A stretch of DNA of 64,000 nucleotides, from NCBI RefSeq assembly GCF_042096255.1, contig NZ_JBELLZ010000003.1, positions 18,104 to 82,103 on the forward strand. The letters are read 5' to 3'. Numbering within the stretch: the first letter of the stretch is position 1; each line of letters opens with the position of its first letter. Positions 21,748-24,178 of the stretch are shown here, piece by piece. A program made the position numbers and the translations under genes. Source of the stretch: Sphingomonas sp. (GTDB taxonomy: Bacteria; Pseudomonadota; Alphaproteobacteria; Sphingomonadales; Sphingomonadaceae). The notes under the pieces were generated by a model that saw only the letters and a list, made by a program, of their open reading frames with translations, searched no databases and had not been told where the DNA came from.

Positions 21748-22839
21748 ATGGCCATGATCCGCGTTGCCAAGGTTACTCCGCTCGTCCTGCTCGCGCTCGC
21801 CGGCTGCATCCCCGCCGGCCGCGGCCCCGCGCCGGGAAGCTCGGCCGGCACCTATACCGAACCCACCGTCGCCCGGCCGGCCCCGCCCGAGCCGCGCCCC
21901 GATGCGCCGCGCGGCGGCGACAAGGTCGAGCAGCTTCCCGCCCCCCGCCCCGCCTGGGAGGCGCGCCGGGTCCGCGCCGATGCGGCCGAGATCCCCGACC
22001 AGAGCTACACCGTCCGCCCCGGCGATTCGCTGCGCTCGATCGCCAACCGGCTCGGTGCAGGATCGGAGGCGATCGCGCGGGCGAACGATCTGGCGCCGCC
22101 GTTCACCATCCGCGCCGGGCAGCGGCTGCGCATTCCCGGCGGCCGCTATCATCTCGTCCGCGCCGGCGAGACCGGCATCGCCATCGCGCGCGCCTATGGC
22201 GTCAAATGGTCGGGCATCGTCGCCGCCAACGATCTGGCCGAGCCGTACATCCTGCGCACCGGCATGCGCGTGCTGATCCCCGGCGCCGACCGCCCGCGCT
22301 CCGCGGCCGAGCGTGCCGCCGCGTTCAGCCTGAACATTGACGACATCCTCACCGGCGGCGAGCCCGCACTCGCCGCCAACAAGGCACCGGCGCGGCCCGT
22401 CGCCTCCTCGAAGCGTGTCCTGCCCGCGACCGCCGCGGTCGCCCCGCCCGCGGCGGCGCCCGGCCGGTTCGTCTGGCCGATCGACGGCAAGGTGGTGACC
22501 CGCTTTGGCCGCGGCCGCACCGGCGAGCGATCCGACGGGATCGAGATCGCCGCGCCCGTCGACACGCCGATCCGCGCCGCCGCCGACGGTACCGTCGCGT
22601 ATGTCGGCGACAGCATCGCGGCGCTGGGCGGACTGGTGATCGTCAAGCATGGCGGCACCTGGACCAGCATCTACGGCCATGCCTCCAGCCTCAAGGTTCA
22701 GCGCGGCCAGGCGGTGAAGCGCGGGCAGGTGATCGCGCTTTCAGGGGACACCGGCTTCTCCGACCGCCCGCAGCTGCATTTCGAGCTCCGCCGCGGAAGG
22801 ACTCCGGTCGATCCGCTGGGCGAACTGCCCAGGCGCTGA
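21748..22839 (+). CDS. Lipoprotein with LysM domains and M23 peptidase domain (NlpD-like)
   Basis: LAGC lipobox; two LysM (YTVRPGDSL, HLVRAGETG); FVWPIDG, GIEIAA, SIYGH, PQLHFELR; first M23 His appears replaced (RSDGIEI). Confidence 0.9.
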   Translation: MAMIRVAKVTPLVLLALAGCIPAGRGPAPGSSAGTYTEPTVARPAPPEPRPDAPRGGDKVEQLPAPRPAWEARRVRADAAEIPDQSYTVRPGDSLRSIANRLGAGSEAIARANDLAPPFTIRAGQRLRIPGGRYHLVRAGETGIAIARAYGVKWSGIVAANDLAEPYILRTGMRVLIPGADRPRSAAERAAAFSLNIDDILTGGEPALAANKAPARPVASSKRVLPATAAVAPPAAAPGRFVWPIDGKVVTRFGRGRTGERSDGIEIAAPVDTPIRAAADGTVAYVGDSIAALGGLVIVKHGGTWTSIYGHASSLKVQRGQAVKRGQVIALSGDTGFSDRPQLHFELRRGRTPVDPLGELPRR

Positions 22840-22847
22840 CGTCGACT

Positions 22848-22955
22848 CGTCATCCCCGCGCAAGCGGGGACCAATCTCCTATCGGTCGAACACACGCATC
22901 CGTCGTTAGTCGGGCGGAGCGCAGGAGATGGGTCCCCACTTGCGCGGGGATGACG
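22848..22955. repeat. CGTC-type REP doublet
   Basis: cgtcatccccgcgcaagcggggaccaatctcct ... aggagatgggtccccacttgcgcggggatgacg. Confidence 0.88.
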
Positions 22956-22981
22956 GTAGTGGAACGCCGCGTCGCCAAACT

Positions 22982-23110
22982 TGCGAACGACTATCAATCA
23001 CGTTGCGAACTACTCTCACTATGAACACTGGCGACAACTTGCCGGTCTGCTCATTCAACTTGCGCAACCATCATGATAGTCATTCTCACGCAGCCTAAGA
23101 ACGTCTCGCA
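22982..23110. promoter_or_regulatory. Four Fur-type operator boxes
   Basis: TGCGAacgacTATCA (22982), TGCGAactacTCTCA (23004), TGATAgtcatTCTCA (23074), TAAGAacgtcTCGCA (23096) in an AT-rich promoter region. Confidence 0.7.
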
Positions 23111-23218
23111 ACAGTCGTTTTTCTATTGTCAAGTGGAACATCTCTCCGGTATCTACATTTTCGTCACACAGACGGGATGCTTGTCCCGCCGCCGAGATCG
23201 AACCGAAGGAGACCGACC

Positions 23219-23407
23219 ATGACCCTCACCACCGCCGGTGCCGCCGCCTGCGCCAAGTGCAAGTTCTTCGACAGCGAGCAGGGTTCGCTGGGCCTGTGCC
23301 GCTACAACCCGCCGATCAGCCAGCCGTCGGGCGACACCGCCGGCGTCTGGCCGAAGGTCGAGGCGAACGACTGGTGCGGCCACTTCGAGGCGCAGCTCGC
23401 CGCCTAA
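23219..23407 (+). CDS. 62-aa four-cysteine miniprotein (CxxCxxF...GxC...WP.V...WCGxF)
   Basis: RBS AAGGAGA, GC3-biased codons, followed by a strong terminator. Confidence 0.85.
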   Translation: MTLTTAGAAACAKCKFFDSEQGSLGLCRYNPPISQPSGDTAGVWPKVEANDWCGHFEAQLAA

Positions 23408-23429
23408 GCGCGACACGCACCATGACGAT

Positions 23430-23470
23430 AACGCCGTCCGGGTCCGCCGACCCGGGCGGCGTTTTCGTTT
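23430..23470 (+). terminator. Rho-independent terminator
   Basis: aacgccgtccgggtc-cgcc-gacccgggcggcgtt followed by ttcgttt. Confidence 0.85.
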
Positions 23471-23488
23471 ATCCCCTCTTCCAGCCAA

Positions 23489-23695
23489 CCGTTCGTGCTG
23501 AGCGAAGTCGAAACACCTGCTCCGAAGCCTGATCCTGGAGCGGCTTTTGGCCAACCTCCACCACCACCGTTCGCCCTGAGCGAAGTCGGAGGGCAAGCCC
23601 CATTTCCCGCGAGGGTGCTTCGACTTCGCTCAGCACGAACGGTTTAATTTAATCGCAAGCTGCCTCGGCCCTTCGACTTCGCTCAGAGCGAGTGG
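23489..23695. repeat. Cluster of four 28-bp REP-like units (ttcgacttcgctcag family)
   Basis: Forward units 23489-23516 and 23567-23594; reverse units 23615-23642 and 23668-23695. Confidence 0.88.
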
Positions 23696-23766
23696 AGGTC
23701 GAGGCGAGATCAGCCTATCTGCGATCCGCTCGCAACTCCTTGACTTCCCGTGTCGTGGCATCGTAA

Positions 23767-23781
23767 TGAGAAGCATTCGCA
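23767..23781. promoter_or_regulatory. Fur-type operator box
   Basis: aaTGAGAagcatTCGCAaa, 16 nt upstream of ATG 23798. Confidence 0.75.
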
Positions 23782-23797
23782 AACGTCGAGTGCCCGA

Positions 23798-24178
23798 ATG
23801 TACGATTTTCTCGACCGCCCCGTTGACTCGCTCTCCACCGATGACCGTCATCTGCTCGACGCCATGCGCGCCTGGGTCCATGCGCTGACCCTCGCCAGTG
23901 AGCCCGCCGCCGCAGTGGCGCCGCGGTTCGCCGACGGCGGCAGCGCCTTTGATGCCGCGATGCGCGTGCTGGAGCGCGACTCGACCGACACCTTGGTCTT
24001 CCAGCGCCCCTGCCATTCCACCGTCGAGGAAACCGAGGCGGTGGTACTCGGCCTGTGGCGCCTCGTCCGTAGCGACCTTCTCGCCCCTGCGCTCGGCGCC
24101 GCGCGCCTGCTGGTTGGCGATGCCGCGGGCGCGTTCGTCGGGGCGATGCAGCGCGCGGTCGGTTCGGCCGATCGCTGA
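23798..24178 (+). CDS. Hypothetical helical protein (126 aa)
   Basis: MYDFLDRPV...RPCHSTVEETE; coding-like codon bias; preceded by a Fur-type box. Confidence 0.75.
   Translation: MYDFLDRPVDSLSTDDRHLLDAMRAWVHALTLASEPAAAVAPRFADGGSAFDAAMRVLERDSTDTLVFQRPCHSTVEETEAVVLGLWRLVRSDLLAPALGAARLLVGDAAGAFVGAMQRAVGSADR

Follow-up and report, generated by a model that had tools for sequence, protein, structure and literature searches.

A predicted HiPIP-like miniprotein gene of Sphingomonas preceded by two phased pairs of Fur-type boxes and a candidate EcfG element

The sequence studied here, referred to as the window, is the whole 64,000-nucleotide stretch of Sphingomonas sp. contig NZ_JBELLZ010000003.1 that was analysed; it is Sphingomonas-like DNA of 68% GC, its parent assembly comprises 186 contigs and 3.6 Mb, and C-numbers below denote contigs of that assembly, in which the window occupies C3:18104-82103. 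Our subject is a gene on the plus strand of the window that encodes a miniprotein of 62 amino acids with four cysteines (P0001), together with the four operator-like boxes that precede it. The gene is real and widely conserved. A word-indexed search retrieved 81 close homologs of 60-70 amino acids, nearly all from Sphingomonas, a scan of species-representative genomes located 346 genomic loci in Sphingomonas, Acetobacteraceae, Methylobacterium and relatives, and an exhaustive HMMER search expanded the family to 889 clusters at 50% identity. Its distribution among the Sphingomonadaceae is patchy, with members in 11 of 151 sampled genomes; beyond Sphingomonas, a conserved genomic neighbourhood was sought and not found, and our literature search found no paper on the family or on its promoter combination. 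The boxes, the gene and its immediate signals are listed here by window position.

22982-22996, minus strand: predicted Fur box 1 of the distal pair, TGATAGTCGTTCGCA; regular-expression match, position weight matrix (PWM) score 30.3 bits on the minus against 15.0 on the plus strand
23004-23018, minus strand: predicted Fur box 2 of the distal pair, TGAGAGTAGTTCGCA; 22 bp from box 1, PWM score 27.1 bits on the minus against 15.3 on the plus strand
23074-23088, no strand assigned: predicted Fur box 3, TGATAGTCATTCTCA, a near-palindrome and the upstream half of the proximal pair; PWM scores 21.1 and 20.7 bits
23096-23111, plus strand: predicted Fur box 4, TAAGAACGTCTCGCAA, the closest to the promoter; regular-expression match, 22 bp from box 3
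23206-23211, plus strand: ribosome-binding site AAGGAG, 7 nt 5' of the ATG
23219-23407, plus strand: coding sequence of the 62-amino-acid, four-cysteine HiPIP-like miniprotein P0001, ATG at 23219; from the open reading frame call, homologs and structural model
23430-23473, plus strand: intrinsic terminator, a stem of 15 pairs (11 GC) with a 4-nt loop at 23430-23463, followed by the T-rich tail TTTCGTTTAT

The upstream gene, which encodes a LysM/M23 peptidase on the same strand, ends at 22839, and the next gene downstream has a promoter of its own, which leaves the miniprotein gene monocistronic. Rfam recognised no known RNA element in its leader. The original prediction, made by a model from the letters of the sequence, had described exactly such a monocistronic 62-amino-acid gene with a good ribosome-binding site and a strong terminator, and the signals listed above agree with it.

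The boxes were scanned with the 15-bp regular expression TG(C/A)(G/T)A-N5-T(C/A)(G/T)CA, which matched exactly four times in the region 22900-23225, with starts at 22982 (TGCGAACGACTATCA), 23004 (TGCGAACTACTCTCA), 23074 (TGATAGTCATTCTCA) and 23096 (TAAGAACGTCTCGCA), and thus with start-to-start distances of 22, 70 and 22 bp. Genome-wide, this loose pattern gave 82 matches on both strands of the 3.6 Mb, against ~96 expected from composition, and since this rate corresponds to a Poisson lambda of ~0.003, four boxes inside 130 bp are far above chance. By the PWM, which was trained on the boxes of orthologs, box 1 received the highest score of the whole genome. Boxes 1 and 2 are asymmetric, with minus-strand scores about double those of the plus strand, and the distal pair is therefore inverted with respect to both the proximal pair and the boxes of the orthologs. 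The four boxes in two 22-bp-spaced pairs that the original prediction had seen were therefore recovered in number and spacing, whereas the relative orientation of the distal pair had to be corrected. Within each pair, the 22-bp spacing puts the operators on the same face of the helix. When the promoters were anchored at the GGAAC element described below, box 3 lined up with the orthologs' second box; the core of box 4 is identical in ortholog L013 and differs by one base in each of L019 and L011.

Comparison with known sites indicated that the boxes are predicted Fur operators of the Caulobacter or alphaproteobacterial type, as had been proposed. They match the validated Fur sites of Caulobacter, (A/T)TTGCGA-N5-TCTCAA (PMC2724300). 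Moreover, a whole-genome scan with the ortholog-box matrix picked out ~29 sites that adjoin a gene set typical of a Fur regulon, namely five TonB-dependent receptor genes, the SUF regulator, nuoA, fdxA, mdh and fpr (ferredoxin-NADP reductase), with further sites at a radical-SAM gene, a PNPOx gene, a DUF6628 gene and a FeoA-like open reading frame, the FeoA label having been given by eye only. Of Fur-family genes, the genome contains one of the Fur type and one of the Zur type, and no Irr was found in it. The motif is also conserved upstream of the orthologs: at least one box is present at 30 of 33 orthologous Sphingomonas promoters, most of which have two to four, these and all later counts over loci being drawn from orthologs that are related to one another and are not independent events. 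The conserved pair of the orthologs, corresponding to boxes 3 and 4 here, is spaced by 22 bp at 16 loci and by 23-24 bp at 6, and most of the other loci show a degenerate second box at the equivalent place. Fur-like boxes were likewise seen at Acetobacteraceae loci.

The distal pair (22982-23018) could have a history of its own, namely that it serves an unannotated divergent transcript or is a relic shifted to its present place by the insertion of the adjacent element of the repetitive extragenic palindrome (REP) type; in that case the miniprotein gene would be served by boxes 3 and 4 alone. In favour of this, the distal pair has the reverse orientation and is separated from box 3 by 70 bp, a REP-like inverted repeat (22848-22955) closely precedes it, and the distal boxes of orthologs are variable in number, spacing and orientation alike. 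We nevertheless find this account very doubtful, in view of the co-directional upstream gene, the lack of any divergent open reading frame with a coding signal, and the fact that most orthologs carry one or two extra boxes located 30-60 bp, and up to ~135 bp, 5' of the proximal pair.

Between box 4 and the ribosome-binding site, two overlapping promoter elements were recognised.

23126-23131 (TTGTCA), N18, 23150-23155 (TATCTA), plus strand: weak predicted sigma-70-like promoter, read by eye
23135-23139 (GGAAC), N17, 23157-23159 (ATT), plus strand: predicted EcfG-type element that overlaps the sigma-70-like promoter; from the sequence and its conservation in orthologs

Whichever holoenzyme is used, all four boxes are located 5' of the -35 region, the proximal pair ending ~15 nt before the -35-like hexamer and 24 nt before GGAAC (~22 nt in the orthologs). 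Neither the miniprotein promoter nor that of any of the 33 orthologs has a box across the -35, spacer or -10. The same comparison was extended to Fur-motif sites across the genome, with hexamers assigned by eye. A box overlaps the -35, spacer, -10 or start at the receptor genes, the FeoA-like open reading frame, fpr, the radical-SAM, PNPOx and DUF6628 genes, the SUF regulator and the gene for a 126-amino-acid protein that follows the miniprotein gene and is described below. At nuoA, fdxA and mdh, the box stands 13-33 nt 5' of the -35, and it is to this class that the miniprotein gene belongs. Indeed, the 16-mer of box 4 (TAAGAACGTCTCGCAA) recurs identically at fdxA (7Fe ferredoxin; C11, ~5970), where it precedes a TTGAC-type -35 by 14 nt, compared with 15 nt at the miniprotein gene; genes of iron-sulfur (Fe-S) proteins may thus have an upstream Fur site of a common sub-type. 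In Caulobacter, upstream Fur sites belong to Fur-activated, iron-using genes (nuoA, sdhC, acnA), the other class being the Fur-repressed uptake genes (PMC2724300). Thus, while the Fur boxes of the original prediction held up, the classical repression implied by placing the gene under them is put in doubt, as all boxes lie 5' of the -35, in the manner of the Fur-activated Caulobacter genes.

The orthologs of Methylobacterium, a genus of another order that uses Irr, carry Irr-like sites instead. There, TTGGAnnTGTTCTAA is found over the -10, and ATTGGAnnTGTTCTAAT overlaps the -10 of a TTGACC-N17-TAATTA promoter; the consensus of the iron control element (ICE) is TTTAGAA-N3-TTCTAAA (PMC1698941). 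In the two Methylobacterium genomes scanned, the pattern TTRGANNNNTTCTAA has two to three sites per genome, and all of these are accounted for by the miniprotein gene or genes and by a perfect tandem ICE adjoining a cysteine desulfurase gene, which is taken to be part of the suf genes. An Irr site over the Methylobacterium promoter would imply repression at low iron. Considering this placement together with the position of the Sphingomonas boxes 5' of the -35, it is probable, by analogy, that the miniprotein is made when iron is sufficient and not during starvation, as would be reasonable for an Fe-S protein.

The Methylobacterium leaders have a further feature of their own. At loci L049-L080, ~60-100 nt 5' of the ATG, a second palindrome, GTTCTAATTAAGAAC, lies beside ICE-like half-sites, and in L059 both of its arms are altered and yet complementary (GTCCTTC-CAAA-GAAGGAC). 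Such compensating changes hint at a leader hairpin instead of, or besides, a protein-binding site.

The opposite sign of iron control was also considered, whereby Fe2+-Fur would cooperatively silence the promoter at high iron in the classical manner, and the miniprotein would be a starvation-induced, Bfd/FhuF-like Fe-S carrier that mobilises or reduces stored or imported iron together with the Fur-repressed 126-amino-acid protein. Strong repression typically goes with several operators, the T-rich DNA that separates box 4 from the -35 might act as an UP element that spreading Fur occludes, and in all orthologs of the adjacent 126-amino-acid gene a Fur box covers the -10. Caulobacter Bfd also offers a precedent, being a small Fe-S protein of ~60-70 amino acids in the Fur regulon and under Fur repression; it differs from the miniprotein in its [2Fe-2S] cluster, its fold, its cysteine pattern and the position of its Fur box, which lies over the promoter as expected of repression. 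Nonetheless, every uptake gene of this genome has an overlapping box, whereas the miniprotein gene and its 33 orthologs have none over the -35, spacer or -10; the promoters that it most resembles are those of fdxA and nuoA; and in Methylobacterium the position of the ICE-like site suits repression by Irr under iron scarcity, a control of opposite sign. On balance, we regard repression as somewhat unlikely.

A second regulatory input is suggested by the GGAAC element. The motif of EcfG, the general stress sigma factor, is GGAAC-N17-20-GTT in S. melonis (PMC6599016). At the promoter of the miniprotein gene, GGAAC-N17/18-GTT was found in 27 of the 33 Sphingomonas orthologs, compared with none in matched control regions and none on the opposite strand; GGAAC-N16-CGTT occurs at ~9 Methylobacterium loci, and GGAAC is kept at several loci of Acetobacteraceae. 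With GGAAC as the anchor, the orthologs share a fixed order, i.e., box, 7 bp, box, ~21 bp of T-rich DNA (gTTgaTTtgTTGTTGTTTcg), GGAAC, N17/18 and GTT, the distance from GGAAC to the ATG being 55-84 nt. The genome encodes NepR on contig C69, with GGAAC-N17-GTT upstream, and the presence of PhyR-NepR-EcfG was judged from NepR alone. The conserved GGAAC...GTT element, which the original prediction had missed, suggests that transcription may depend on EcfG and would place the gene in the general stress response. It is to be noted that Sphme2DRAFT_2026, a strongly EcfG-dependent gene of S. melonis whose motif starts GGAACTT 35 nt from the coding sequence, was suspected to be an ortholog and was rejected, the matching metagenome contig encoding an unrelated 82-amino-acid secreted or membrane protein.

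High-potential iron-sulfur proteins (HiPIPs) are periplasmic electron carriers of phototrophs and of a few chemotrophs. The miniprotein itself had no significant match in Pfam, NCBIfam or PHROGs, and a single-sequence search of the PDB returned only noise. Its family has the motif C-x2-C-x-(F/W)(F/W)...G-x-C-R-x-x-P-P...W-P-x-V...D-W-C-G-x-(F/Y/W), in which C11, C14, C27 and C53 are invariant or nearly so among 38 close and 118 distant homologs, giving a ligand spacing of C-x2-C-x12-C-x25-C. No N-terminal export signal was seen in P0001; the first cysteine is residue 11, and there is neither a twin-arginine motif nor a hydrophobic leader.

When the 118 diverse members were scanned singly, 20 gave sub-threshold matches to PF01355 (HIPIP), with a best E of 0.004, and 4 to PF18524 (HPIP_like); single members matched the HiPIP-like BssB and BssC families, and no other Pfam family recurred among the 118. 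A profile of the family had only three matches in the PDB, all of them HiPIPs (E=0.4-1.7). In hhalign, where the reference consisted of three true HiPIPs from other alphaproteobacterial genomes, all four cysteines paired with the HiPIP cluster ligands, with a 13-residue insert before the last cysteine (P=1e-3, probability 22%). An AlphaFold2 model built from a deep alignment reached a predicted local distance difference test (pLDDT) score of 81.6; an earlier AlphaFold model, from a shallow Sphingomonas-only alignment, had a pLDDT of 49 and was not interpreted. The 11 best Foldseek matches of the model in the PDB were all HiPIPs or HiPIP-like [4Fe-4S] small subunits of glycyl-radical enzymes, at a template modelling (TM) score of ~0.52, a probability of 0.3-0.85 (nine of the 11 having 0.66 or more) and an E of 0.03-1.2. 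Some UniRef clusters of the family are already named "High-potential iron-sulfur protein". Both the lack of an export signal and the HiPIP resemblance had been part of the original prediction; the former was confirmed, and the latter was borne out at the level of remote homology (Pfam, PDB profile, hhalign) and suggested at that of fold (Foldseek), the structural comparison proposed there having returned HiPIPs or HiPIP-like proteins as best matches, though with a TM of only ~0.5 at the E range given.

Likeness to PF01355 extends to the small size, the C-x2-C-x12-C...C order, the aromatics after the first pair and (G/D)WC at the last cysteine. In contrast to HiPIPs, the miniprotein has no twin-arginine translocation (Tat) signal or periplasmic location, is without the ~35-residue N-terminal part, has a 12-13-residue insert (NPPISQPS...WP) between the third and fourth cysteines, scores below the Pfam threshold, and occurs in non-phototrophs, with predicted iron and stress control. 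No canonical HiPIP was found in this genome, and class-wide one was found in 2 of 201 genomes; as the genome is without one, the family does not represent a decayed version of a resident HiPIP. We conclude, from sequence and model, that the protein is probably a remote, N-terminally truncated and cytoplasmic relative of HiPIPs that lies outside PF01355 as defined, from which P0001 is separated by score (no match), export signal and one ligand spacing; binding of an Fe-S cluster is predicted accordingly from the same comparisons. A further structural parallel is offered by the small subunits of glycyl-radical enzymes (BssB/BssC, MASS beta, 4-HPAD gamma; PF18524, PF18512, PF08201), which are likewise cytoplasmic, HiPIP-derived [4Fe-4S] mini-domains, include the top Foldseek match 9o8u_B as well as 2y8n_B, and were occasionally matched below threshold in Pfam. 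Those are, however, obligate subunits encoded in the operons of anaerobic enzymes, whereas the miniprotein gene is monocistronic and found in aerobes, with no such enzyme nearby.

The four-cysteine domain also occurs in other settings. In the distant family members P0117, P0139, P0095, P0101 and P0172 it is fused or duplicated: two copies open a phage-like protein of the collagen/tail-fibre kind, another copy follows a Schlafen AlbA_2 domain, and tandem duplicates measure 120-155 amino acids. Because such fused and duplicated forms occur, the domain is a mobile module that extends beyond stand-alone miniproteins.

The cysteines could, instead, bind zinc or form a structural knuckle, making the protein a small zinc-stabilised adaptor or regulator whose likeness to HiPIP is convergent. 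Consistent with this, every HiPIP match is below its significance threshold, the gap between the third and fourth cysteines is unusually long, and the fusions to tail-fibre-like, Schlafen/AlbA_2 and other proteins make a structural role plausible there. On the other hand, the pattern is CxxC...C...C and not the double CxxC of a zinc ribbon, the aromatics adjacent to the ligands (CxxCxFF, DWCGHF) mirror the cluster shield of HiPIPs, the predicted regulators are of the iron type (Fur, and Irr in another order) and not Zur, and the matches, weak as they are, are all to [4Fe-4S] proteins. Zinc binding is thus distinctly unlikely in our estimation.

Overall, the explanation that we favour, with a rough probability of 0.5 for the whole, is that of a cytoplasmic Fe-S miniprotein produced under iron sufficiency while stress signalling is active. 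It would be a minimal HiPIP-like protein, most likely with one [4Fe-4S] cluster on C11, C14, C27 and C53, and the conserved aromatics FF16-17, Y29, W44, W52 and F56 may form the cluster shield. Fe2+-Fur would bind the two phased operator pairs, all 5' of the -35, and would act positively on the promoter or be needed for its expression. Under this scheme, the miniprotein would be spared in iron scarcity, as nuoA, sdhC and acnA are in Caulobacter. The second input would come from the EcfG-type GGAAC-N17/18-(G/A)TT over the weak sigma-70-like promoter, linking the gene to the general stress response.

Several observations count against this explanation and temper the estimate. With regard to the protein, the HiPIP scores are individually weak (Pfam below the gathering score, hhalign at 22%, Foldseek E of 0.03-1.2), and the third-to-fourth cysteine gap is 25 residues, compared with ~13 in HiPIPs. 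With regard to the stress input, the -10 of the EcfG-type element is ATT here and not GTT, the promoter hexamers were assigned by eye from the sequence, and the exact motif GGAAC-N16/17-CGTT is not enriched genome-wide (26 found, 42 expected), so that the EcfG reading draws solely on positional conservation. As for the sign of iron control, cooperative binding to four operators could just as well repress tightly, e.g., by blocking an UP-like T-rich element; and should the miniprotein act jointly with its Fur-repressed 126-amino-acid neighbour, low iron might induce the two alike, and repression would gain weight.

A more specific form of the favoured explanation is an AND gate of Fur and EcfG, in which phased Fur dimers are needed for an ECF-type (extracytoplasmic function) promoter, and an oxidation-tolerant [4Fe-4S] miniprotein is produced only when the cell is both stressed and iron-replete. 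The same logic would operate through Irr in Methylobacterium, the proteins would form a new cytoplasmic branch of HiPIPs with a role in stress, and the 126-amino-acid partner would be regulated in the opposite direction. In this full form the idea is, in our judgement, unlikely; if true, the stress role could be, for example, that of a redox buffer, an electron sink or a cluster reservoir.

Regardless of the gate, the predicted regulatory region is unusual in combining two helically phased operator pairs upstream with an ECF-type promoter, and known systems resemble it in part. In E. coli, ftnA is said, after Nandal et al. in 2010, to have several upstream Fur boxes, through which Fe-Fur reportedly induces the gene by relieving silencing by H-NS. 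The analogy, for it is an analogy only, lies in the several Fur sites well upstream, the AT-rich region and a gene expected to be on at plentiful iron, whereas the organism and its silencer repertoire differ. The Caulobacter crescentus genes nuoA, sdhC and acnA (PMC2724300) share the operator TGCGA/TGAGA-N5-TCTCA/TCGCA, its location 5' of the -35 and an iron-using product. They have one operator, compared with four in two phased pairs here, where an ECF/EcfG-type signature is added and activation is proposed by inference. The promoter would be a compact natural test case for positive action of Fur from phased upstream sites and for the combination of iron status with an ECF sigma factor, and the regulators (Fur or Irr) differ among three orders that seem to have arrived at one logic. 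In addition, the HiPIP superfamily would be extended into the cytoplasm by this large family of HiPIP-like miniproteins, which has neither a Pfam model nor an export signal and occurs in ordinary aerobic Alphaproteobacteria.

The neighbouring 126-amino-acid gene, to which reference was made above, has the following features.

23720-24178, plus strand: gene for a 126-amino-acid protein of no known family (coding sequence 23798-24178), the conserved downstream neighbour
23740-23745 (TTGACT), N18, 23764-23769 (TAATGA), plus strand: its predicted promoter, from the sequence
23720-23734 and 23767-23781: its two predicted Fur boxes, the second of which overlaps the -10

This gene follows the miniprotein gene at no fewer than 27 of the 33 Sphingomonas loci, in neighbourhoods that otherwise differ. 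Its homologs are limited to Sphingomonas, and no relative was found in Pfam, NCBIfam or the PDB. In all orthologs, a strong TTGAC-N17-TAtaAT promoter is combined with a symmetric Fur box that covers the -10 or directly follows it, a predicted layout that is the textbook arrangement of Fur repression, and the two genes may therefore be regulated oppositely by iron. The Fur-boxed DUF6628 gene on C5 was tried as a relative of the 126-amino-acid protein and was dismissed, as no significant similarity was found; that gene (~22649), whose Fur box overlaps its promoter, is an uncharacterised member of the predicted Fur regulon.

One locus stands apart from the others. In L016 (Tanticharoenia sakaeratensis, Acetobacteraceae), the miniprotein is 76% identical to the Sphingomonas one and is accompanied by the otherwise Sphingomonas-only 126-amino-acid neighbour, while its upstream region has no Fur boxes and no GGAAC; horizontal transfer or assembly contamination is possible.

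Lastly, the miniprotein gene is flanked on both sides by repeats that resemble REPs or miniature inverted-repeat transposable elements (MITEs). The inverted repeat on its 5' side (22848-22955) consists of one hairpin with 33-nt arms, and the cluster on its 3' side (23487-23704) comprises four copies of a ~25-nt unit (ACCGTTCG..CTGAGCGAAGTCG) in alternating orientation.

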